Of a DNA stretch of 64,000 nucleotides, positions 955 to 60,133 are shown piece by piece. Under the pieces are notes generated by a model. It was not told where the DNA came from. It ran no database searches and worked only from the letters and a program-made list of their open reading frames with translations. The DNA lies in NCBI GenBank assembly GCA_937873455.1, contig CALMYG010000177.1, positions 60,118 through 124,117 of the forward strand. The letters are read 5' to 3'. Position 1 is the first letter of the stretch. Each line of letters opens with the position of its first letter. Source of the DNA: an uncultured Verrucomicrobiota bacterium. GTDB lineage: Bacteria; Verrucomicrobiota; Kiritimatiellia; CAIVKH01. A program made the position numbers and the translations under genes.

Positions 955-3774
955 ATGCAGGGCAATTACAAAACGCAACAAAATACCGCCGTTTCCGGTT
1001 CTTTGCGTAAGGACATGTTTTGGGAAACCGCCTTCCTATTTAGCCTGGTCGCCCTAATCTACGTTATCACCACAATACCTTACCCGGTAACGGGTTATCA
1101 CTCAGACTGGTTGTACCGACATCTTAGCGGTGACCTCTGGTTTCCTTCCCCTCGCCCGATTGCCGGGTGGTGGGCATACGGGTTGCGGGGGTTGCCGCAA
1201 GGCCATGAATTCGCCTGGGCGGCCTTTTCCAACACCGGTTGGATGCTGGCCGGATTGTTCATCTTCAACAGGCTCGCACGGCGATTTCCCTTCTATGACG
1301 GAACTCCGCAGGTACGAGAACGCTACCGGGAGCGCATCGCCTTTCTAGCGACGGGATTGGTCGGGCTGTCTCCCGCGACGTGGTCGACAGCTACCCAACC
1401 CGGCCCGGCTCCTCTGGCCTTCTTCGTATTCATGCTTACCGCAGCCTTATGGCAGTATGCTCTCCAGCATCCCACGCGAATGCGGCTGGGAACCGCATCG
1501 TTTTTGCTTGGATTGTCCATCATCGAAACGCCGGCGGCCACTGTTTTGGGATTGCCATTGTTCATCGTCGTGACGGCTTTGGTCTGGAGCCGTCGCGATC
1601 GTCGGGTTGAGATTCCGGTTATGGCGGGGTCCTTGCTTGCCGGTCTAATCACCGCGATCATGCTGCTTCGTAAACTGGCCGTCGTCATGATGGGCGAAAC
1701 GCCATTATGGTCGGACATATTTTTGGCCTGGCGCGCGGATACCGGCATCAGCCTATTTCCCGTAGGATGGCTGTCCGTCCTGGTCCTTTCCGGGGGAGCG
1801 CTGTTCTTAAGCGCCTGGGCAACGATTCCGGCTCGAAAACGGACACATCGCCGAACCATCATCATTCAATGCGCATTGACCGCCGGTCTGATCGCCCTAT
1901 ACATGACCCATCCTTGGAGCAATGACACCGCGCATCGCGGAAGAGTCCCCCTCATGCCCGAGTTGGCCGTCGCCGTTGCGTTGAGCGTCAGTATTGCATT
2001 TCTATTTCGCCATTTTTCCGTCCGGCAAGACGGCACAACGCACATTCAGCGCTTCATCTACATCGCCCTCGCCTTCCTGTTGCAACACCGGATCATGGAA
2101 TTTCAACCGCTACGCCGCATCCAGGAGGCCCGCACGATGGACAGGCTGCACCAAACGGCCTTTGATGACACGGCGCCGGAAATTTGGGTGTTGAGCGATG
2201 GCGCCATGGATGCGCCGCTTTGGTTCGCCGGGCAAGCACGAGGGCTTCGGATCATCTTTCTCCATCCGGCAATGGAAACCCAGCCCGCCTACCTGCGCCG
2301 GCTATCCCGGCAATTTACCGACGAACGTTACCGGGCCATGGCGGAAGTTGGAATCGGCGCCCTCCTGGCGGAGTTTCGTTCGAGCAACGCTTCCGATATA
2401 TCCGTCACGGGAATGCGTCATTACGCCACGATGGTGCTGGCCGGTCTTCGTCCGGTTCCCCACCTTCTTCGCTACGACGGATCGACCGCGCATGAAACAA
2501 TCGACGGGTTCAAACGAGGCGATCTGCACCATGCATGGGATGAGATGGCGCGACCGACGCTGCAACGGGCCGCGAAACGCAACGACGTATTCGGACGGCA
2601 TGCCCAGCACCTGCTGCGTTTGCTGTCCCGCGCCGCTAACGATTTAGGCGTGCATGCCGAATACGAGGGACAACCGGAACGAGCGCAAGCGCTCTACCGC
2701 CAAGCGTTAAACTGGAATCCCCTCAACGTAAGCGCCGGCCTGAACACCCTGTCCGACGAGCGCCTGCGGGCGCCGACTGAAACGTTAAGACGTGAACTCG
2801 GACGGGGTCAAACCGGTCGATTGGCGGCACTGGTGGAAACCGACGGTTTAATTTACCGGCGGGCGCTTATCGAATTCATGGAGGAAGCGATCCAACAGCA
2901 GCAGCGCCGTCCGGAAACGCTATCGCGCTTGTTTCCGATTGCCCGACTCGCCCTGGAAGGTCGCACCCATGAAGCCTTCACGGCGGCGAGACGCTTCACG
3001 GCGGAACATCCCGATGACATTCCCGGCTGGATCATGCTGGCCAGCTTGGCGCACGAGCGGAATGATACGGTTCTGCTCCATGAGATTTTCCAGCGCGCTG
3101 ACCGGACCGATCCCGCGTGGACGCCGCTGTGGGCCATGCTGGGGGAACGCGCCATGAACGAAGGCGACCTCAAGGCGGCCCGCCGTCACTTCGAAACGGC
3201 GGCGCGCCATTGGCCGCTCAACTTGCGGACGCGAGAGGCCTTGCTGAAAATCGCCTGGCACGACCAGGATACCGGCGCGCAAGATCGCCATCTCCGCGAT
3301 GTACTGACGATTGATCCCGGAAATCCCTGGGCGCATTTCGTATTGGGCCTGCGACGATTCGCCGAGGGCGATCATCCGCGAGCAGAGCGGATGCTGCTCG
3401 CCACGATCAGCCGCGAGCCCATGCCCATCGCCTTGAACAATTTGGCCTGGCTAATGCTCCGGCGGGGTCAAACCGCTGAAGCGTTATGGTATGTCCGCAT
3501 GGCGATTAACCTCGAACCCTATGGCGGAGCGCAATGGGACACCTTGGCATCCATCCTGCTGGAACAAGGCGAGTGGACGGCCGCCGGGATCGCCCTGCAA
3601 ACCGCACTGCGTTTGGATCCGGAAAGCCCGGCCGCCGCGGTGCACTATGCGTTCTGGAAACGGCAAACCGGCACGACGTTCGAAGAAGGCGAGGTCAGCA
3701 TGCGAAGGCTCGACCCCCAGCGCCTTCCGGATGATGAGCGCCTCAAGCGGCTATGGCGCCTGGCGATGGAGTAA
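955..3774 (+). CDS. Polytopic membrane protein of the DUF2723/TMEM260-like (GT-C-like) type, with a long C-terminal TPR-repeat domain
   Basis: The first ~450 aa contain more than ten predicted TM helices, with many W/Y/F residues and loop Arg. The remaining ~450 aa are TPR-like, with repeated A/L/Y/W patterns (AWLMLRRGQTAEALWYVRMAINLEPYGG...). The family assignment comes from recognising the architecture. The true start may be the internal Met (MFWETAFLF). Confidence 0.6.
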   Translation: MQGNYKTQQNTAVSGSLRKDMFWETAFLFSLVALIYVITTIPYPVTGYHSDWLYRHLSGDLWFPSPRPIAGWWAYGLRGLPQGHEFAWAAFSNTGWMLAGLFIFNRLARRFPFYDGTPQVRERYRERIAFLATGLVGLSPATWSTATQPGPAPLAFFVFMLTAALWQYALQHPTRMRLGTASFLLGLSIIETPAATVLGLPLFIVVTALVWSRRDRRVEIPVMAGSLLAGLITAIMLLRKLAVVMMGETPLWSDIFLAWRADTGISLFPVGWLSVLVLSGGALFLSAWATIPARKRTHRRTIIIQCALTAGLIALYMTHPWSNDTAHRGRVPLMPELAVAVALSVSIAFLFRHFSVRQDGTTHIQRFIYIALAFLLQHRIMEFQPLRRIQEARTMDRLHQTAFDDTAPEIWVLSDGAMDAPLWFAGQARGLRIIFLHPAMETQPAYLRRLSRQFTDERYRAMAEVGIGALLAEFRSSNASDISVTGMRHYATMVLAGLRPVPHLLRYDGSTAHETIDGFKRGDLHHAWDEMARPTLQRAAKRNDVFGRHAQHLLRLLSRAANDLGVHAEYEGQPERAQALYRQALNWNPLNVSAGLNTLSDERLRAPTETLRRELGRGQTGRLAALVETDGLIYRRALIEFMEEAIQQQQRRPETLSRLFPIARLALEGRTHEAFTAARRFTAEHPDDIPGWIMLASLAHERNDTVLLHEIFQRADRTDPAWTPLWAMLGERAMNEGDLKAARRHFETAARHWPLNLRTREALLKIAWHDQDTGAQDRHLRDVLTIDPGNPWAHFVLGLRRFAEGDHPRAERMLLATISREPMPIALNNLAWLMLRRGQTAEALWYVRMAINLEPYGGAQWDTLASILLEQGEWTAAGIALQTALRLDPESPAAAVHYAFWKRQTGTTFEEGEVSMRRLDPQRLPDDERLKRLWRLAME

Positions 3775-32861: not shown

Positions 32862-33956
32862 TTAGCGAAACGTTGCCGCGTGACTACCGGGAAGAGTCAA
32901 CAGATCGCTGATTCCCCAGCTATATTGAACGATAGTTCCAATGCTAGAGGACCGCTCGTGGGTCTTTTGCCGCAAAGCAATCGCTTGAATTTTTTCCGAA
33001 TCGGGATAAGCCCGCGCTGCGATGTCCCAGACCGGAATCGGCGCACCTCCCCGTGGCTCCATGAGGTCAGCATAGAATTCCAGCGATTCTTTCAGGATGC
33101 CATCCTCCCGATGGAACAAATCCTCGCCGGTATCCGCCTTTACCACCTCGCAAATCTGAAGGCAGGCCGCCAATCCTGCGGTCTGGTGCCAGGCATCGCC
33201 GCGGAAATGATCATTATTTTCGCCGTTGGCGTTCACGAAATAGGTGGTTCCGCTTCCCGGTTCCTCTCTCGGAGCGCGAAAGTCCCGCCACCGGATCACC
33301 TGTTTATAACGCTGCACCACAGCCTGATACCAGGCTTGGTCCCCGACAAGTCGCGCGACATGCAAGACGGCCTCCAGACCCGCCAACGTCCGGTTGCTCA
33401 CATGTTCGTTTTCCCAGTGCTGCAGGAGTTGAGGCCTGGTATCGGGCAACGCCTTCTCCCTGGGGAGCAGATAGACCTGCGCCGTGAAAACGGCCCACGC
33501 TTCGAAATCGGCCCGAATCTCCTCGTATTCCTCGGCCTCCAACCTTTTCAGCACATACGCCGCCCTGGCCATCGCGCCAAGATTCCAGGCCGCGCACAAC
33601 CAGCCATTCGGACCGATGAACCCCTTGTTTTGGGCAGCCCAGGCGCTCAGAATCGCGGCCGCGGATCGCGCGTGGGCTTCGCGCTCCGGCCCGGTCACCC
33701 GCGCATAAGCCGCCGCATGTAACAGCGCGTTTTCAGCATCCGCGGTAAAACTCCCGCATGCCGTATGGGCGGGTAAATCAAGAAAGGCCACCGGTTCCGC
33801 TCTACCCGATTGCACGCCCCGAGCCTGCAGGATATGGAGGATGATCTCCGTCCGGACAGGCGAGAGAACATCCTTTCCGTCTGCCCGGACCAAAGCCGGA
33901 AACAAATACGGACAAGTGACAAGCCACGCGCAAAGCACCTCAGCACGCCATTTCAT
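32862..33956 (-). CDS. Secreted alpha/alpha-toroid protein that resembles a polysaccharide lyase (alginate-lyase-like)
   Basis: It has a signal peptide. It is W-rich and helical, and its WENEHVSNRT segment resembles the NNHSYW block of alginate-lyase-like lyases. This assignment is by resemblance only. Confidence 0.4.
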   Translation of the reverse strand: MKWRAEVLCAWLVTCPYLFPALVRADGKDVLSPVRTEIILHILQARGVQSGRAEPVAFLDLPAHTACGSFTADAENALLHAAAYARVTGPEREAHARSAAAILSAWAAQNKGFIGPNGWLCAAWNLGAMARAAYVLKRLEAEEYEEIRADFEAWAVFTAQVYLLPREKALPDTRPQLLQHWENEHVSNRTLAGLEAVLHVARLVGDQAWYQAVVQRYKQVIRWRDFRAPREEPGSGTTYFVNANGENNDHFRGDAWHQTAGLAACLQICEVVKADTGEDLFHREDGILKESLEFYADLMEPRGGAPIPVWDIAARAYPDSEKIQAIALRQKTHERSSSIGTIVQYSWGISDLLTLPGSHAATFR

Positions 33957-34312
33957 GTTGCCTCACGTTCCGCTTATTCGCCCGGCGGGTCAACGGAAAT
34001 CACCAACAGGGCATAGTCGTGGATTCGGGTATGCGCCGCAGGCGCAGGGCGGATTCCCGCCTGGCTCTCACGCCGCATCACATGCCGCCCTCGGCGCGGG
34101 CGGCGACCGCGCCTCTCTACCCTGCGGACGGCGAGGCCGCCGTCCCTGTCCCTCCCGACGTGATCCAGCGTTGTAGGCCGACCCTCCGCCTGCCTCGCCA
34201 AAGGCTTTGCGAAGGCGGGTGGTCGGCGTACGTTACGTATGGGGCGATCAACCAGCAGGCGGAAGGGCCCGCGTGCAAACGTTCCAAACCTCGGAAAAAA
34301 GGACGCTGAAAA

Positions 34313-34361
34313 GTTCCAAGGTTTGGAACTTTTTGACTGGCGATTTTCCGAAGTTTGGAAC
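34313..34361 (+). promoter_or_regulatory. Two adjacent palindromic operator-like sites upstream of the thr leader: GTTCCAAGGTTTGGAAC (perfect 7-3-7) and TTCCGAAGTTTGGAAC (imperfect)
   Basis: I read these directly. 34313-34329 is a perfect inverted repeat. 34346-34361 is a near-repeat. A further GTTCCAA half-site lies at 34281-34287. A TTGACT -35-like hexamer at 34333-34338 sits between the two sites. Confidence 0.5.
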
Positions 34362-34428
34362 TTTTACTTCAATTTTCCCTGAAATTACCGCTTGTCCTGA
34401 ATCAGGATTCCGTTAGTATCGGCCGAAG

Positions 34429-34476
34429 ATGAAATTTGGAACCACCATTACCATTACGAAGATCGCAGACTCCTGA
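34429..34476 (+). CDS. thrL: Thr/Ile-rich leader peptide (MKFGTTITITKIADS) of a threonine-operon-type attenuator
   Basis: The ORF is atg aaa ttt gga acc acc att acc att acg aag atc gca gac tcc tga. Six consecutive Thr/Ile codons are followed ~28 nt later by an intrinsic terminator. It is located 77 nt upstream of hom. Confidence 0.6.
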   Translation: MKFGTTITITKIADS

Positions 34477-34503
34477 GGGGCAGCGATGCGCGCAGTGGTG
34501 CAA

Positions 34504-34527
34504 CCCCTCCCCGAGAGGGGTTTTTTT
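34504..34527 (+). terminator. Rho-independent terminator/attenuator hairpin (CCCCTC-cccga-GAGGGG + TTTTTTT) between the leader peptide and hom
   Basis: A 6-bp GC stem at 34504-34509/34515-34520 with a 5-nt loop and a 7-T tail. An upstream GAGGGG at 34475-34480, overlapping the leader stop codon, can pair with the CCCCTC arm instead, giving an antiterminator. Confidence 0.6.
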
Positions 34528-34552
34528 GTAACGATATACCGGGAACAGGATT

Positions 34553-35851
34553 ATGAAGGAAATTGGATTGGGCTTGCTGGGTTTTGGCACCGTGGGGGCC
34601 GGTGTCGTGGAAGGACTCCAACGCAACGGGGACCTGATCGCCGGGCGCTCCGGCGTGAAGCTGGTGTTGCGCAAAATCGCCGATCTCGACCTGGAACGCG
34701 ATCGCGGCGTGTCCGTTGATCGCGGCATGTTGACCAACGACGCGATGTCGGTCATCCGCGATCCCCAGGTTCATATCATCATCGAGCTGATCGGCGGCGT
34801 GGGCATCGCCCGCGAACTGGTTACCGAGGCGCTCAAAATGGGCAAGCCGGTGGTAACGGCGAACAAGAAATTGCTGGCGGAATACGGAGCGAGCCTGTTC
34901 GCGCTGGCCGATGCCAACCAGGTGGACCTGCGTTTTGAAGCGAGCGTCGGCGGCGGCATCCCGATCATCCAGGCGCTGCGCGAGGGGTTGATCGCAAACC
35001 ACATCCCCAACCTTTACGGCATTCTCAACGGCACCTGCAACTACATCCTGACCCGGATGGAAACCGAAGGGCTTCCGTTTGACCAGGTCTTGCGGGCCGC
35101 CCAGGACGCAGGCTTTGCCGAAGCCGAACCGAGCCTGGATATCGACGGCCACGATACCGCACACAAGGCGGCGCTGCTGGCGTCGCTGGCTTACGGTTTT
35201 CCCATACCGCTGGATTCGCTGTACGTGGAAGGCATTCGCGGCATGGCCCGCGAAGACATCGCGTATGCCGCCGACCTGGGCTACCGGGTGAAGTTATTGG
35301 CGGTGGTGAAGAAACAGGACGACGCGGTGAGCGTGCGGGTGCATCCGGCGCTGGTGCCGCAGGATCACATGATCGCGTCGGTGTCGGGCGTGTTTAATGC
35401 GGTAATGGTGTCCGGCGATGTCGTCGGCGATACGTTGTATTACGGACGTGGAGCGGGTCGCCTGCCCACGGCCAGCGCGGTATTGAGCGATGTCGCGGCG
35501 GTGGCGCGCCAACTGGCCACCCAGTCCCGCCACCACCTGCCCGCGTTTATCCCGGAGGGCGCCACCCCGTCGATGCTGCCGGTCGATGATATTTCCTGCC
35601 GGTACTACCTGCGCCTGCTGGTGCAGGACAAGCCGGGGGTGCTTGCCCGGGTCGCCGGGATTCTCGGCGAACACGCGATCAGCATCGCGACGATGATCCA
35701 GAAAGACACCGGACGCGCCGGGTTTGCCGAGATGATCATGACGACGCATGTGGCGCTGGAGAAAAACTGCCGCAACGCACTGGTCGCCCTGAACGCGCTG
35801 GACGTGGTGGGCGCGCCGGCGGTGCGCTACCGGATCGAGGATTTTCACTGA
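34553..35851 (+). CDS. hom: Homoserine dehydrogenase with a C-terminal ACT domain
   Basis: The NAD-binding N-terminus is LGLLGFGTVGAGV. ...ANKKLLA... and EASVGGGIPII are homoserine dehydrogenase motifs. The C-terminal ~80 aa form an ACT-like domain. Confidence 0.9.
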   Translation: MKEIGLGLLGFGTVGAGVVEGLQRNGDLIAGRSGVKLVLRKIADLDLERDRGVSVDRGMLTNDAMSVIRDPQVHIIIELIGGVGIARELVTEALKMGKPVVTANKKLLAEYGASLFALADANQVDLRFEASVGGGIPIIQALREGLIANHIPNLYGILNGTCNYILTRMETEGLPFDQVLRAAQDAGFAEAEPSLDIDGHDTAHKAALLASLAYGFPIPLDSLYVEGIRGMAREDIAYAADLGYRVKLLAVVKKQDDAVSVRVHPALVPQDHMIASVSGVFNAVMVSGDVVGDTLYYGRGAGRLPTASAVLSDVAAVARQLATQSRHHLPAFIPEGATPSMLPVDDISCRYYLRLLVQDKPGVLARVAGILGEHAISIATMIQKDTGRAGFAEMIMTTHVALEKNCRNALVALNALDVVGAPAVRYRIEDFH

Positions 35852-35857
35852 TCGGCG

Positions 35858-37021
35858 ATGAAGTACGTGCTCGTCATTTACGAGGGGGCCGCGCAAGGCC
35901 CCTGCGATGACCTGGAGGGCGCCACCCCGCTGGAGTTGGCCCGCAACATCCACGCCACCGCGTTGAAGGCGCGCGGCCAGGCCGGATTGCTGCGTTGGCC
36001 GGAACGCGATGCGGTCACCCGCACCGAACAGGCGCTGGCCTGGTTGCTGGGCGTCGCTCCCGAAGAAGCCCGCGCACTGCGACGCGGCCCGCTGGAGGCC
36101 GCCGGCACCGCGATGGACCGTTCGCGCTGGACCTATGCCTACCGGGGCAACTTCATCACCACCGACGGGCCGGAAATCCGCGATAACCGTGTGCACGGGT
36201 TGAGCCGGGATGAAACCGCGTGGCTGACCCAGGCGGTACAAGAGGCGACGCAGGAGGAGCCGGTACTTTTCGAGGTGCTGGGCCCGGGACGCGTGGCGGT
36301 GATGTTTGACCGGCTGGACGGAGTAATCGATGACGGGGCGTTCCCCCGGCTGGGCGAACTCGAGGAACCGGAAACCGCCGCCCGTTCGAGCGCCCGGTCG
36401 CGCGTCATGGCGGCGGCGCAATCCGCGCTGGCCCGCCAATCCATCAACGACGTGCGGGTCGATCTTGGTGAAAATCCGGCGAACTGCCTGTGGCTCTGGG
36501 GCGGAGGTCCGCCGGTCCGGCTTGGCCGCCCGTTTCTGGGCGCACCCCTGCGGGCATGTATGATCACCAACAGTCCCCTCGCCCGCGGCCTCGCCACGCT
36601 GTGTGGCATGTCCACCGAACCGCTCGGCGATCCCTGGGCGGAAGCCGCCAAACCGGAACTCATCACGGCGGAAGAAATCGCCGCCCGGATCGCCGCCCAC
36701 GAGTTGACGGTGATCTACGTGGAGGCGCCGAATGAAGGCGGGACATTCGACGCTCCGGTCGACTGCGTTAAAAGCCTCGACCGGTTGGATATTCATGTAC
36801 TGGCGCGGGTGGTCGAAGCGGTGGAGCGTGCGGGCCCCGTGCGGCTCATGGTAACCGCCCTCCCCGCCGAAGGCGAATTTCTGGGTCAAACTCCCGTGCT
36901 GCTGTGGGGCGCCGGCATCTCCGGCGATGAGGCGGCCCGGTGGGATGAAACGCACTGCGGCGAGGGCGCCTTGGGCGTCACCCCGGCCCAACGATGTTTA
37001 TCACGTTTAATAGGAGAATAA
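35858..37021 (+). CDS. Cofactor-independent phosphoglycerate-mutase-like (ApgM-family) protein, the predicted non-orthologous homoserine kinase of thr operons
   Basis: The N-terminus MKYVLVIYEGAAQGPCDDLEGATPLELA matches the ApgM-family start (MKYIL.I.DG.AD.P...L.GKTPLE). In lineages lacking thrB this family is embedded between hom and downstream thr genes. That point is established knowledge from comparative genomics. Confidence 0.7.
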   Translation: MKYVLVIYEGAAQGPCDDLEGATPLELARNIHATALKARGQAGLLRWPERDAVTRTEQALAWLLGVAPEEARALRRGPLEAAGTAMDRSRWTYAYRGNFITTDGPEIRDNRVHGLSRDETAWLTQAVQEATQEEPVLFEVLGPGRVAVMFDRLDGVIDDGAFPRLGELEEPETAARSSARSRVMAAAQSALARQSINDVRVDLGENPANCLWLWGGGPPVRLGRPFLGAPLRACMITNSPLARGLATLCGMSTEPLGDPWAEAAKPELITAEEIAARIAAHELTVIYVEAPNEGGTFDAPVDCVKSLDRLDIHVLARVVEAVERAGPVRLMVTALPAEGEFLGQTPVLLWGAGISGDEAARWDETHCGEGALGVTPAQRCLSRLIGE

Positions 37022-37025
37022 CGGT

Positions 37026-38270
37026 ATGGCACTGATTGTGCAAAAATATGGAGGCAGCTCGGTGGCGGATGCCGACTGCATGCGGCGGGTTGCCCGCCGC
37101 ATCTTGAATACCCGCGACCAAGGCAACCAGGTTGTGGTCGTCGTCAGCGCGATGGGCGACACCACCGATGACCTGATCGCCCTGGCCAAACAAATTACGC
37201 CGGACCCCAGCGAGCGCGAACTCGATATGCTCATGGCCAGCGGCGAACAAATTTCCTCGGCTATCCTGACCATGGCTTTGCACGCCATGGGCGCCGACGC
37301 CATCGCCATGAGCGGACCGCAGGCCGGCATCTTTACCGACGCCGTGCATACCAAGGCCAAAATCCGTGCAATCAAGCCGAAGCGTATTCGCGAACACATC
37401 AAACAGGGCAAAATTGTCATCATCGCCGGGTTTCAGGGCTTAAACCCGAACGAGGACATCGCCACCCTGGGTCGCGGCGGATCGGACACCACCGCCGTCG
37501 CCCTCGCCGCCGCCCTGAAAGCGGATCGCTGCCAAATCCTGAAAGACGTCGAAGGCGTGTACACTGCGAACCCGCGGGTGGTGCCCGGGGCGGTCAAGCT
37601 GGACGAAATTGCCTACGACGAAATGCTCGAGCTGGCCAGCCTCGGTTCCGAGGTCTTGCAGTCGCGGGCGGTCGAATTCGCCAAAAAATACGGCGTGGTG
37701 TTGGAAGTTGTTTCAAGTTTCGTGGAAAAACCGGGTACATTGGTAAGAGAAGAGGTAAAAAACATGGAAGATATCGTGGTTCGTGGAGTGGCATCGGACA
37801 AGGGGCAGGCCAAAGTCACCATCGCCGGCGTTCCGGACAAACCGGGCATGGCCGCCGAATTGTTCAAGGCGTTGGCCGCCGCCAGCATCAACGTGGACAT
37901 GATTGTGCAGAACGTCAGCGCCCAGGGCGCCACCGACATTTCCTTTACCGTGCCGGCGACGGAAATCAACAAGACCCGCAAAACGCTGAAAACCCTGAGC
38001 GGCCATCTGGGCGACCGCGAAGCCGTCCTCGACGAGGACATCGCGAAAATCAGCATCGTCGGCGTAGGGATGCGCAGTCACTCCGGTGTAGCCTTCCGGA
38101 TGTTCGACGCCCTGGCCAAGGCCAAGATCAACATCAGCATGATCGCCACCTCGGAAATCAAAATTTCCGTGGTGATCAAAAAGGCCCACGCCGACAAGGC
38201 CGTGCAGACCCTGCACGAGGTGTTCGGCCTGGATAAGCTCGGCAAGAAGAAATCCAGCAAAAAGAAGTAA
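37026..38270 (+). CDS. lysC: Aspartate kinase
   Basis: MALIVQKYGGSSVAD...VVVVVSAMGDTTDDL are the kinase motifs. The C-terminal tandem ACT domains are ...ISIVGVGMRSHSGVAFRMFDALAKAKINI.... Confidence 0.9.
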   Translation: MALIVQKYGGSSVADADCMRRVARRILNTRDQGNQVVVVVSAMGDTTDDLIALAKQITPDPSERELDMLMASGEQISSAILTMALHAMGADAIAMSGPQAGIFTDAVHTKAKIRAIKPKRIREHIKQGKIVIIAGFQGLNPNEDIATLGRGGSDTTAVALAAALKADRCQILKDVEGVYTANPRVVPGAVKLDEIAYDEMLELASLGSEVLQSRAVEFAKKYGVVLEVVSSFVEKPGTLVREEVKNMEDIVVRGVASDKGQAKVTIAGVPDKPGMAAELFKALAAASINVDMIVQNVSAQGATDISFTVPATEINKTRKTLKTLSGHLGDREAVLDEDIAKISIVGVGMRSHSGVAFRMFDALAKAKINISMIATSEIKISVVIKKAHADKAVQTLHEVFGLDKLGKKKSSKKK

Positions 38271-38316: not shown

Positions 38317-39906
38317 ATGAAGAAAATCGAAATCTACGACACGACCTTGCGCGATGGCGCGCAGGGAGAAGGCATTTCCTTTTCCGGGGTCGGCAAGATT
38401 CGTGTGGCGAAAATCCTCGATGAACTGGGCGTCGACTACATTGAGGGCGGTTATGCCGCCTCGAACCCCAAAGACATGGAATTCTTCCATGCCATCGGCA
38501 AGGAAAAGCTCCGGCACGCCAGAGTCGCCGCGTTTGGCAGCACGCGGCGCGCCAACATCAAGGCCTCGGAAGATCCCGGCACGCTCGCCTTGATCGAGGC
38601 GGGCACCCCGGTGGTCACCCTCTTCGGAAAAAGCTGGGCCTTCCATGTGCATGAAGTCCTGCGCACCACCGAAGAGGAAAACCGCGCGATGATTTTCGAT
38701 ACCGTGCGCTTCCTCAAGGAGAACAACCGCGAAGTCATTTACGACGCCGAACACTTCTTCGACGGCTACAAGGACTCGCCCGCCCACGCCCTGGCCACCC
38801 TCAAGGCCGCGCGGGATGCCGGCGCCGACCGCATTGTATTGTGCGACACCAACGGCGGCACCCCCTACTTTGAAGTGGGAGATATCACCCGCGAAGTAAT
38901 CCGCCAATTGGGCGGAGCGATCGGCATTCACACCCACAACGACTCCGAACTGGGGGTCGCCAACTCGCTGGAAGCAATCCGGGCCGGCGCCATGCACGTG
39001 CAGGGAACGATCAACGGCTTTGGTGAACGCTGCGGCAACGCCAACCTGTGTTCCATCATCCCCAATCTTGCCCTGAAAATGGGTTACACGGTGTTGAGCG
39101 GACCGGAAAAACTGAAGCAGCTCAAGGCGGTGGCCGATTTTGTCTATGAGATGGCCAACGTGCGTCCCAACGACAAGGCGGCCTTTGTCGGTCACAGCGC
39201 CTTCGCCCATAAAGCGGGCATGCACGTGGACGGGGTTAACAAGAACCCGCAAAGCTTCGAGCACATCCCGCCGGAAAGCGTGGGCAACCAGCGACGGGTC
39301 CTGATCTCGGAATTGTCGGGGGCCAGCAATGTCTTTCTCAAGGCCGTGGAAATGGGCCTGGAGGTCGACAAGAAGTCTCCCGAGGTGAAGGCGATCCTGA
39401 ACGAACTCGAACAGATGGAAAAGAAAGGCTACGAATTCGAGGCAGCGGAGGCTTCGTTCAAGTTGCTTATTCAAAAGGTATTGAAGGCGCACAAACCGTT
39501 CTTCTCACTCGAAGCGTTCCGGGTAATCGTGGAGAAACGGCATAAAGACGATCCCTGTATTTCCGAGGCGACGGTCAAATTGCGCATCAACGGCAATGTG
39601 TTGCATACCGTCGGCGAAGGCGACGGCCCGGTGGACGCCCTCAACGACGCCATGCGCAAAGCGTTGTCCTCGGCCTACCCTGGCATCGGCGACGTGCATC
39701 TGGTTGACTACCGGGTCCGCATCCTCGATCCCGAAGAAGCGACCGCGGCGAAAACCCGCGTGCTCATCGAATCATCCGACGGCGAACAAACCTGGGGAAC
39801 GGTCGGGGTCTCCACCAACATCATTGAAGCCTCCTGGGAGGCGCTGGTGGATAGCGTGGAGTACAAACTTTTCCTCGAGGAACAAAAGAAAAACAGCGCG
39901 TCCTGA
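38317..39906 (+). CDS. cimA: (R)-citramalate synthase / 2-isopropylmalate-synthase family, CimA-like with a C-terminal regulatory domain
   Basis: IYDTTLRDGAQ is the HMGL-like/LeuA N-terminal motif. HTHNDSELGVANSL is the metal site. The C-terminal LeuA-dimer-like domain takes it to 529 aa. It lies in a thr/ile operon behind a Thr/Ile-codon leader, which favours the citramalate route to isoleucine. Confidence 0.65.
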   Translation: MKKIEIYDTTLRDGAQGEGISFSGVGKIRVAKILDELGVDYIEGGYAASNPKDMEFFHAIGKEKLRHARVAAFGSTRRANIKASEDPGTLALIEAGTPVVTLFGKSWAFHVHEVLRTTEEENRAMIFDTVRFLKENNREVIYDAEHFFDGYKDSPAHALATLKAARDAGADRIVLCDTNGGTPYFEVGDITREVIRQLGGAIGIHTHNDSELGVANSLEAIRAGAMHVQGTINGFGERCGNANLCSIIPNLALKMGYTVLSGPEKLKQLKAVADFVYEMANVRPNDKAAFVGHSAFAHKAGMHVDGVNKNPQSFEHIPPESVGNQRRVLISELSGASNVFLKAVEMGLEVDKKSPEVKAILNELEQMEKKGYEFEAAEASFKLLIQKVLKAHKPFFSLEAFRVIVEKRHKDDPCISEATVKLRINGNVLHTVGEGDGPVDALNDAMRKALSSAYPGIGDVHLVDYRVRILDPEEATAAKTRVLIESSDGEQTWGTVGVSTNIIEASWEALVDSVEYKLFLEEQKKNSAS

Positions 39907-40132: not shown

Positions 40133-40363
40133 ATGACAACTCTCGACAGAATAACGTTTAATCCTGAAATTATGGGCGGAAAGCCCTGTATCAGGGGACT
40201 TCGCGTTACCGTCGGCTTGATTGTTGGCCTTGTTGCCGCTGGAAGAACGCGCAAAGAGATACTGGATCTTTATCCCTATCTCGAAGACGAGGATGTGACA
40301 CAAGCCCTAACCTATGCTGCATGGCGTGCTGAGGAAATTGATATTCCACTTGTCCCGGCATGA
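40133..40363 (+). CDS. DUF433-domain protein, a putative antitoxin
   Basis: It is ~76 aa. PEIMGGKPCIRGLRVTV is the characteristic DUF433 core. It overlaps the next gene by 4 nt, and an AT-rich promoter-like region lies upstream. Confidence 0.6.
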   Translation: MTTLDRITFNPEIMGGKPCIRGLRVTVGLIVGLVAAGRTRKEILDLYPYLEDEDVTQALTYAAWRAEEIDIPLVPA

Positions 40364-40734
40364 AATTGATTGTCGACATGAACCTCTCCCCTGCTTGGGT
40401 AACGGTACTTAATCAAGCTGGGCATGTAGCAAGTCATTGGTCGAATATAGGCGCGCCTAGTGCGAAAGACCGGGAAATAATGGCGTGGGCTCGCGATCAT
40501 GGGTACACAGTTTTCACTCATGATCTTGATTTTGGATCTATACTCGCCGCAACAAACGCCGAAGCACCTAGCGTCATTCAAATTCGAACCCAGGATCCAA
40601 CACCTCTACATTGCGCAACAATGGTCCTTAACATCATCAGGAAATACAATGCAGATTTGACACGTGGCGCATTGATATCTGTAGATGAGAATCGTGCACG
40701 TTTGCACATATTACCATTGCGAAAAGATGGATGA
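40360..40734 (+). CDS. DUF5615-domain (PIN-like/Mut7-C-like) protein, a putative toxin
   Basis: The N-terminus MKLIVDMNLSP...HDLDFG.. is typical of the DUF5615 partner of DUF433. It is ~124 aa. Confidence 0.6.
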   Translation: MKLIVDMNLSPAWVTVLNQAGHVASHWSNIGAPSAKDREIMAWARDHGYTVFTHDLDFGSILAATNAEAPSVIQIRTQDPTPLHCATMVLNIIRKYNADLTRGALISVDENRARLHILPLRKDG

Positions 40735-57655: not shown

Positions 57656-58648
57656 TCATGCGCCGGCCAGCACCTTGCCCAAAACCCGCAACCGGCTGAC
57701 CCCGCCGTCCGGGAAAATGTTTAGTTTTAAATGGGAAAACGGTCCGGTGTTTTTAATATCCCGGTCAAAGAAATGTTGGTGGTGCGCCTGCAGCTTTGTC
57801 CGCGGAAGCACTTGATTCCATTCGACTTCATTCCACGTCAGGATATCGATGTTTTCATCGGGGGCGAGACAGCCGTCCACCGAGCATTCATCGGGAAAAT
57901 TGCCCTTGAAATGATTGGTATCAACTTCAAGCTGGCTGATGATCCCCGGACGGCCCAGCTTGACGATCACCCAGTCGTAGCCCATCCCGCGGCGGCGCTT
58001 GGTCTCCCATCCATCCCCCATGTTGGCCGAACGACCGGGCATCAGGAGGTTGTGCATGGAGCTGAAAAACATATCGCTGCAGGCCACCGCGCGCCCGCCA
58101 TTCGCGAGGGCGGCGAGATCAATGGTTTCATCCGGATCGCTCGCGGTCCAATCCTTGTACACGTCGCCGTACACCCGGAAACGCGCGACGCCGCCATCGG
58201 GATAAATGTTTAACCGCACATGGGTCCAGGGTTGCCGGCTGCTGATGGCAAACAGATTTTGGGCCCCCGGATTCAACGGCGAGCGCGGGAGAATTTCCGT
58301 CCATTCGCCCTGCGCGCTCATTGCGGCATCGATGGAGGCAAACGCGGGGTTGTTGCCGAGAAAGTGGTTGGTGTCGATGTCCACCCCGTGTATCACACCG
58401 GGAAGGCCGAGTTCGATTACGCACCAATCATGGCCGGGCGTGCGTTTTCGGCGGGTCTCCCAACCGTCCATCCACTTGCCGCGATCCGTATACTTGTCAT
58501 CGATGAAGATGCCCCGCCCCGCCTTGAGCAGGTTTTCCTTTTCGGCAAAAAATTCATCGCTGGCGGAAAGGGTTTTTCCGCCGATTTTTTCCGCGGCGAG
58601 GTCAATAAACCCCGCAAACGACGCAGCTCCGGATGGGGCATGGCTCAT
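57656..58648 (-). CDS. alc: Allantoicase
   Basis: It carries the two tandem allantoicase repeats, each with DGWETRR/DGWETKRRR and VDTNHF(L/K)GN motifs. Confidence 0.85.
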   Translation of the reverse strand: MSHAPSGAASFAGFIDLAAEKIGGKTLSASDEFFAEKENLLKAGRGIFIDDKYTDRGKWMDGWETRRKRTPGHDWCVIELGLPGVIHGVDIDTNHFLGNNPAFASIDAAMSAQGEWTEILPRSPLNPGAQNLFAISSRQPWTHVRLNIYPDGGVARFRVYGDVYKDWTASDPDETIDLAALANGGRAVACSDMFFSSMHNLLMPGRSANMGDGWETKRRRGMGYDWVIVKLGRPGIISQLEVDTNHFKGNFPDECSVDGCLAPDENIDILTWNEVEWNQVLPRTKLQAHHQHFFDRDIKNTGPFSHLKLNIFPDGGVSRLRVLGKVLAGA

Positions 58649-60037: not shown

Positions 60038-60133
60038 GCGCGCACCCCGCCCGGCAAGTTCATGTTAATCCCCCGCGCGTGCCGCGAATATTCGATTACA
60101 AACCTGATTACGCGTGCTATACTACCCGGCAAC

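Follow-up and report, generated by a model that had tools for sequence, protein, structure and literature searches.

A leader region immediately upstream of hom, the first gene of a threonine (Thr) and isoleucine (Ile) pathway operon in an uncultured Verrucomicrobiota bacterium, is very probably a Thr/Ile-sensing, ribosome-mediated transcription attenuator of that operon. The element (coordinates 34429–34527) lies in a 64,000 nt stretch, here called the window, that corresponds to positions 60,118–124,117 of the forward strand of contig CALMYG010000177.1 (assembly GCA_937873455.1; GTDB lineage Verrucomicrobiota; Kiritimatiellia; CAIVKH01). It has the features by which classical attenuators are recognized: a leader open reading frame (ORF) rich in cognate codons, an intrinsic terminator, an antiterminator sharing an arm with the terminator, a spacing compatible in silico with control by a ribosome, and conservation. 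A first-pass annotation had proposed the attenuator from the DNA alone, and conservation of the leader and hairpins, their geometry and folding in the presence of a modeled ribosome all support it. All of the sequence-level predictions of the attenuator model that computational tools can test hold, and from these we infer that the leader is translated, that transcription terminates prematurely, and that the outcome responds to Thr and Ile supply.

The leader ORF is transcribed rightwards (34429–34476), with an ATG at 34429 and a TGA at 34474–34476, and its 15 codons encode MKFGTTITITKIADS. The putative regulatory codons (34441–34464) are ACC ACC ATT ACC ATT ACG (34441–34458), followed by AAG and then an ATC Ile codon (34462–34464), such that seven of the 15 codons specify Thr or Ile. 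The ORF length, the six consecutive Thr/Ile codons and the placement of the TGA within a GAGGGG segment had all been called initially, and the coordinates are correct in each case. No other run of at least six Thr/Ile codons exists in any of the six reading frames of the window, for which first-order Markov simulations predict 0.07, and this one ends 44 nt before the start of a strong intrinsic terminator. The combination of run and terminator exceeds chance expectation because the run is unique and strict criteria identify just three strong hairpin-plus-T-run terminators in the 64 kb, including that of the leader. The other two are at 58561–58583 (rightwards) and 23604–23586 (leftwards), and canonical intrinsic terminators seem to be rare in this genome.

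Three short segments, denoted arms 2, 3 and 4, could form two competing helices. Arm 2 (GAGGGG; 34475–34480) shares the last two bases of the TGA stop codon and is identical to arm 4 (GAGGGG; 34515–34520), the 3′ arm of the terminator; arm 3 (CCCCTC; 34504–34509) can pair with either. All three are located where the first-pass annotation had placed them, and the mutually exclusive pairing that it described is confirmed. The terminator hairpin identified in a consensus scan (AACCCCUC-CCCGA-GAGGGGUU; 34502–34522) contains arms 3 and 4 and is followed by a tract of seven T residues (34521–34527) that forms the 3′ part of the intrinsic terminator. The hairpin and T7 tract upstream of hom are thus as first described, although the stem is 8 bp (AACCCCTC/GAGGGGTT, with the 5-nt loop CCCGA) rather than 6 bp, and the T-run ends 25 nt, not 26 nt, before the hom ATG at 34553. 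In the alternative antiterminator domain (34475–34509), a GAGGGG:CCCCUC helix closes a 23-nt structured loop and is predicted to form with the ribosomal A-site at codons 10–12. Folded as an isolated domain, the window antiterminator has a free energy of about −15 to −15.8 kcal/mol, which makes it somewhat more stable than the terminator (−12.3 to −12.9 kcal/mol). Minimum free energy folds also contain a protector (1:2) structure (34449–34500), in which the ACCAUUACG codons pair with CAGUGGU around a CUCC-UGA-GGGG hairpin that sequesters arm 2.

In the proposed mechanism, expression of hom, the ApgM-like gene, lysC and cimA would be set by the supply of charged tRNA-Thr and tRNA-Ile, with transcription predicted to start at a sigma-70-like promoter a few nt 5′ of the leader AUG. 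When Thr and Ile are both plentiful, the ribosome would reach the UGA codon and cover arm 2, leaving the CCCCUC of arm 3 free to pair with arm 4, and the 8-bp hairpin followed by U7 would stop transcription short of hom. When either amino acid is scarce, the ribosome would stall within the TTITITKI run, covering the protector segment and exposing arm 2, which would pair with arm 3 once the latter is transcribed; the terminator would not form and RNA polymerase would enter hom. If the window leader is not translated, the protector structure would sequester arm 2 and termination would occur by default.

Conservation of the leader among related hom loci

Related loci encoding Hom were fetched from 80 metagenome-assembled genome (MAG) locations without reference to any RNA feature. 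The closest Hom relatives, at most 87% identical, are in MAGs labelled Kiritimatiellia, Verrucomicrobia or Lentisphaerae. A leader is present upstream of hom in 18 of the 80 loci; 14 of these are of the window type (L001–L004, L006–L013, L033 and L034) and four are of a second type. Separately, searching metagenome contigs for the three-arm pattern recovered 57 loci, 15 of which have hom immediately downstream, mostly with Thr/Ile-rich leaders (e.g. MNSFTTITTITTTGVT, MKTKTTTTTIRTTAYS, MKRFVSIITIAITTTGGF). Conservation of the leader ORF and hairpins upstream of hom orthologs, proposed as a check when the element was first noticed, is therefore seen in 18 of 80 loci and 15 contigs. Hom proteins of element-bearing relatives are 56–87% identical to that of the window.

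These leaders share a common layout in which a promoter-like motif precedes a Thr/Ile-rich ORF whose stop codon adjoins GGGG; CCCCTC, GAGGGG and a U-run follow in that order. The 14 window-type loci have ATG-started Thr/Ile-rich ORFs of 14–18 codons (e.g. MKTTTAITIIVTTSDS, MKKTTVITITTTSCA, MNNTTTIITITTGGGS, MTSNGTTIVTTIITTGDS, and MKRVVAIITITTTGGS in L012), a length departed from by a single element carrier (L120, seven codons). The stop codon is TGA (TAA in L008) and is followed directly by GGGG, a 21–33-nt loop, (A)ACCCCTC, a second loop, and GAGGGGTTTTTTT. Among non-redundant leaders, Thr accounts for 31% and Ile for 15% of the residues (46% together), with Thr encoded by ACG (70), ACC (29), ACT (8) and ACA (2), and Ile by ATT (39) and ATC (15). 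Because frame and composition are kept while synonymous codons and neighbouring residues vary, the pattern of sequence change indicates that selection on these leaders is on decoding rather than on RNA sequence.

The alignment of the element (A1) contains 26 sequences, half of which were chosen by a pattern that fixes the arms, and the independent evidence for arm conservation comes from the window and the 14 loci selected by Hom. Of these 15 sequences, twelve have GAGGGG as arm 2, and the others have AAGGGG, GAGGGA, and GAGAGG with a compensating GGCC extension. The terminator is paired in 95% of A1 cells, and two flanking pairs covary; arms 2 and 3 could pair in 98% of cells. In 18 of the 26 sequences the antiterminator domain equals or exceeds the terminator in stability.

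Wherever the element was found, hom follows it directly, 13–120 nt downstream. The genes upstream in the window have no counterpart in any related locus, and the order hom-(apgM-like)-lysC-cimA is largely kept, such that the element travels with hom independently of the upstream gene. Assignment of the leader terminator to that gene was considered and rejected: the gene (32862–33956) is encoded by the minus strand and lacks conservation among the relatives. Since it is divergent and unconserved while the hom-(apgM)-lysC-cimA order persists, the terminator belongs to the hom leader. A covariance model (R1) built from 13 window-type leaders (the window and loci L001–L013) detects no further copies in the window or in the Hom-selected loci that lack the element. 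No second attenuator was found in the window; neither of the two remaining strong terminators is preceded by a leader ORF.

The second type of leader (L043, L049, L062 and L074) encodes MRLKRTIMGTITTRRGSA, with a TITT run only, and is about 115 nt upstream of hom. Its terminator is GCCCCGC/GCGGGGC-U6, and a strong hairpin that encloses the stop codon abuts this terminator. No convincing antiterminator was found in these four leaders, the hairpin and terminator overlapping by merely 2–5 nt, and with R1 scores of 17–21 bits they are counted as related only.

Several leaders have additional motifs near the 3′ end of the ORF. Many relatives (L007–L013, L034, L097, L106 and L107) end in GGGAGGCUC(U)UGA, placing a GGAGG similar to a Shine-Dalgarno (SD) sequence just before the stop codon, and in most of these the loop that separates arm 2 from arm 3 also contains a stretch of U residues (UUUUG). 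Neither is present in the window. The GGAGG within the ORF and the U-run in the loop may be pause signals for the ribosome or RNA polymerase.

Initiation, RNA folding and alternative explanations

The hom leader requires its own promoter because it is situated in a divergent intergenic region. A TTGnnn-N16/17-TAnnnT motif is located upstream of 25 of the 26 leaders (1.0 expected from shuffled sequences). The predicted −35 hexamer in the window is TTGTCC (34392–34397; aligned as GCTTGT in A1), and the predicted −10 hexamer is TAGTAT (34414–34419), which ends 9 nt before the leader ATG. The corresponding distance is 8–14 nt in 18 leaders and 21–33 nt in seven. No promoter-like motif was found between the terminator and the hom ATG in a consensus scan of the window. 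From this arrangement we infer a very short, SD-less 5′ untranslated region (UTR) and near-leaderless initiation, which is the least secure step in the model; the hom genes, unlike the leader ORFs, carry AGGA/GGAG-type motifs. Several attenuator leader ORFs of Actinobacteria are translated from leaderless mRNAs or very short 5′ UTRs.

Toeprinting indicates that a ribosome protects roughly 12 nt 3′ of its A-site codon. In 13 of 25 leaders the main Thr/Ile run ends 13 nt upstream of arm 2; for most others the distance is 16 or 19 nt. Because the run ends 13–19 nt upstream and protection extends for 12 nt, a ribosome stalled at the end of the run would protect the mRNA up to, but excluding, arm 2. 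Folding was modeled with a ribosome mask in which the 5′ part of the leader was forced unpaired up to 12 nt beyond the A-site. With no ribosome, the window leader forms the terminator with a probability of 1.00, and the ACCAUUACG:CAGUGGU and CUCC:GGGG segments around the stop codon are paired. The terminator probability is 0.90–0.98 with the A-site at codons 5–8, falls to 0.02–0.55 at codons 9–12, where arm 2:arm 3 pairing reaches 0.70, and is 1.00 from codon 13 to the stop, where arm 2 is covered. The switch between two alternative structures for which folding had been suggested as a check is thus reproduced in the window, and the protector structure there forms solely when uncovered by the ribosome. 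In transcripts of the relatives that end before arm 4, the antiterminator probability is about 0.8–1.0 unless the ribosome is at the stop codon, and because of this dependence the folding models identify occlusion of arm 2 by the terminating ribosome as the common core of the mechanism.

Several observations weigh against the attenuator reading. For most relatives, equilibrium folding of the full-length RNA favours the terminator despite a stalled ribosome, and equilibrium switching is confined to the window, L006/L133, L033, L081 and a few others. Because the terminator wins at equilibrium elsewhere, antitermination in the other relatives must, under this model, be kinetic and governed, as in other attenuators, by which helices fold first while the RNA is being made. 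Many relatives have a weak protector structure or none, and their antiterminator forms without a ribosome. The arm 2:arm 3 helix is invariant and, because it never varies, covariation neither supports nor tests the antiterminator. A hairpin inside the antiterminator loop gains no stability over shuffled versions of that loop (mean z −0.39, p about 0.1), and was discarded as evidence of selection. An SD-like motif is absent before the leader ATG in 24 of the 26 leaders, including that of the window, and we know of no documented leaderless or near-leaderless initiation in this lineage, which the leader needs. Finally, the element is absent from L005, whose Hom is 82% identical to that of the window, and from most loci with Hom identity below about 65%. 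In L005 there is neither leader nor terminator, apgM, lysC and cimA are not neighbours, and hom directly follows another coding region; a recent loss or rearrangement would account for this state, as would the presence of a second hom copy.

The lack of an SD sequence, the equilibrium preference of full-length RNA for the terminator in most relatives, and an antiterminator without covariation are also compatible with a constitutive or leaky terminator or insulator, with the short ORF arising, untranslated, as a by-product of conservation at the RNA or DNA level. This is very unlikely, as the nucleotides of the ORF diverge, yet its frame, length, Thr/Ile content and stop position are kept and its synonymous codons vary. 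A plain terminator also has no need of the duplicate of arm 4 that is conserved beside the stop codon, and the divergent orientation of the upstream gene leaves nothing to terminate or insulate from.

Two further explanations were considered. The switch could be real but set by a trans-acting factor such as an RNA-binding protein, an uncharged tRNA or a small molecule rather than by ribosome stalling, and the loop between arms 2 and 3 does contain a semi-conserved sequence (GGCGCA...UUUUGC) in many relatives. That motif is absent from the window, however, and the region is too short for a T-box and, at a permissive E limit of 10, has no hit among the T-box, riboswitch and protein-binding leader families of Rfam; because such a factor would also leave unexplained both the Thr/Ile run in a conserved frame and its fixed distance from arm 2, we regard this as highly unlikely. 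It is scarcely credible that the ORF encodes a functional micro-protein and that the hairpin is merely the terminator of its gene. Although a conserved short ORF with its own promoter-like motif and a following terminator would fit such a gene, the peptides are poorly conserved except in composition, their invariable position 13–120 nt upstream of hom is unaccounted for, and in the window no promoter-like motif separate from that of the leader lies between the terminator and the hom ATG.

The hom operon and its surroundings

Four rightwards-transcribed genes follow the leader. The first regulated gene is hom (34553–35851), encoding a homoserine dehydrogenase with a C-terminal ACT domain (PF00742, PF03447 and PF01842; NF004976, 524 bits). 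It is followed by a gene for a divergent ApgM/PhosphMutase-family protein (35858–37021; PF10143), by lysC, encoding a monofunctional aspartate kinase (37026–38270; NF005155, 584 bits), and by cimA, encoding a citramalate synthase that provides a threonine-independent route to isoleucine (38317–39906; TIGR00977, 730 bits, cutoff 450). Profile scores confirm the initial calls of hom, lysC and cimA, and the Pfam and NCBIfam identification of these genes bears out the proposed match between the sensed amino acids, Thr and Ile, and the products of the operon. The second gene had been called an ApgM-like kinase, of which the family assignment stands in a divergent form and the kinase activity derives from context. 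This protein is below every NCBIfam cutoff, including those of TIGR00306 and TIGR02535 ("proposed homoserine kinase"; 110 bits versus 446), and is possibly a non-canonical homoserine kinase, judging by its neighbours. It evolves much faster than Hom and LysC (33–58% identity among relatives versus 67–91%), and its gene is missing from several attenuator-bearing operons (L011, L097, L107 and the L043 group).

The translation of the divergent gene upstream (32862–33956) resembles a secreted protein. The intergenic region between it and hom includes a segment (34000–34250) that is up to 76% GC, compared with about 60% in the adjoining genes; it has no convincing coding periodicity, and its ORFs have no Pfam matches. 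Just 5′ of the predicted −35 hexamer is an 89-bp imperfect palindrome (34277–34365; fold −39.3 kcal/mol, z −4.5) built of four copies of GTTCCAA/TTGGAAC half-sites with 32-bp spacing. A fifth copy, GAAATTTGGAAC (34431–34442), is inside the leader ORF, and the unusual "KFG" N-terminus of the window leader arises because it occupies codons 1–5. The half-site heptamer has a background frequency of 0.11 per kb, and the cluster is present in none of the relatives. The palindrome could be an operator array for an additional regulator or a small inserted palindromic element. At the other end of the operon, directly 3′ of an AT-rich gap downstream of cimA, are genes for a DUF433 protein (76 aa) and a DUF5615/PIN-like protein (124 aa) that overlap by 4 nt (40133–40734) in a toxin-antitoxin-like layout.

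Relation to known attenuators

No relevant match to Rfam was found in a permissive scan of 33000–36000 (E up to 10), and there is no match to the Thr_leader family (RF00506). No T-box or amino-acid riboswitch model matches, the sole hits being chance-level miRNA and snoRNA matches with E above 1, none of them within 34429–34527. Scans of L001 and L012 at the RF00506 gathering score (55 bits) are also negative, with E. coli thrL scoring 122 bits as a control. The element is not a member of RF00506, since the model matches E. coli thrL but not L001, L012 or the window.

The element nonetheless resembles E. coli thrL in several respects. Both are read by Thr and Ile, both have a run of Thr/Ile codons followed by Gly-rich residues (cf. 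MKRVVAIITITTTGGS in L012), and both have an arm 2 at the stop codon that is identical to the 3′ arm of the terminator (GUGCGGGCU-GA in E. coli, U-GAGGGG here). Each also has a GC-rich terminator and long U-run just 5′ of the first aspartate-pathway gene, and E. coli thrL scores 27.5 bits against R1, a model built from Kiritimatiellia leaders only. The arm sequences are unlike, however, and arm 2 here begins within the stop codon and extends 3′ of it rather than 5′. The E. coli leader has 21 codons, compared with 15 in the window, where the predicted 5′ UTR is just a few nt long; thrABC is regulated there, and a monofunctional hom, the ApgM-like gene, lysC and cimA here; and the hosts are a gammaproteobacterium and a member of the Kiritimatiellia, within the Planctomycetes-Verrucomicrobia-Chlamydiae (PVC) group. 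Convergence is more likely than common descent.

Met and Val codons are mixed into some leaders upstream of hom (L033, MMRLTVIMTMAGSS; L034, MNRAGIVLVTMTGGS; L084, MIHDVMMEVD), and the hom attenuator may also sense Met or Val in some lineages. The presence of Met codons fits because hom also feeds methionine synthesis. Vitreschak et al. are said to have described in 2004 thrA attenuators of the Pasteurellales that add Met codons to the Thr/Ile leader, to which the L033, L034 and L084 leaders would be similar; the window leader differs in having no Met codon beyond its start.

A similar design occurs in low-GC (32–39%) metagenome contigs (L095, L104, L130, L093, L116 and L096/L115/L117), which have the same CUCNNC-UGA-GGGG...CCCCUC...GAGGGG-U-run arrangement and a TTGACA/TAGAAT promoter motif 10–14 nt before the leader ATG. 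The leader peptides of these contigs are rich in Lys and Thr (MNNFGKTTKKTAKTLF in L095/L104; MTTVSLIVKKTNKTLS in L130), and their ORFs are located upstream of an aspartokinase gene and a lysA-like gene; L130 has two, on the minus strand at 3140–3242 and 1809–1904, the second leader ending in ..IKKTKKTSP. It is possible, but on balance doubtful, that these reflect a broader undescribed chassis, consisting of a near-leaderless ORF whose stop codon is fused to arm 2 and of GAGGGG/CCCCUC/GAGGGG with a U-run, that is re-used with different codons across the aspartate-family pathway and in unrelated lineages: Thr/Ile (sometimes Val/Met) before hom in Kiritimatiellia and relatives, and Lys/Thr before aspartokinase and lysA-like genes in low-GC uncultured bacteria. 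If so, such re-use would point to either an old common origin or the horizontal spread of a modular regulatory cassette.

A conserved complementary triple common to the antiterminator and terminator is typical of the classical attenuators of Actinobacteria and Proteobacteria (PMC1262725). The trp, ilvB and leuA leaders of Corynebacterium, Mycobacterium and Streptomyces have the triple gGCC-rGCy-GGCC, comparable to GAGGGG-CCCCUC-GAGGGG here (PMC1262725), but they sense Trp or Ile/Val/Leu, regulate other operons and have no sequence similarity to the window element; that study found no actinobacterial threonine attenuator (PMC1262725). The documented range of leader-peptide attenuation, a textbook mechanism, is narrow: up to 2010 it had been demonstrated only in Proteobacteria and Actinobacteria, to which a few surprising cases in Firmicutes were then added (PMC2965389). 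The searchable literature mentions no such attenuator from Verrucomicrobia, Kiritimatiellaeota or the PVC group as a whole. The initial remark that such an attenuator is unusual for the lineage agrees with this distribution (PMC2965389, PMC1262725). The lineage and the sequence family are new for a mechanism of this kind, the regulated operon is a different one, and the leader is probably near-leaderless.

A Thr/Ile attenuator in Kiritimatiellia would extend this mechanism to the PVC group and would imply tight coupling of transcription and translation in these bacteria, and it suggests that translation can initiate on a very short, SD-less 5′ UTR. It also provides an annotation rule for a short leader ORF that gene callers overlook, and, as the element is absent from Rfam, the alignments and model (A1, A2 and R1) could seed a new family. 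For the organism itself, it offers regulatory support for hom, the ApgM-like gene, lysC and cimA as a single Thr/Ile-responsive unit, and membership in this unit would back a role in the threonine pathway for the uncharacterised ApgM-like protein.

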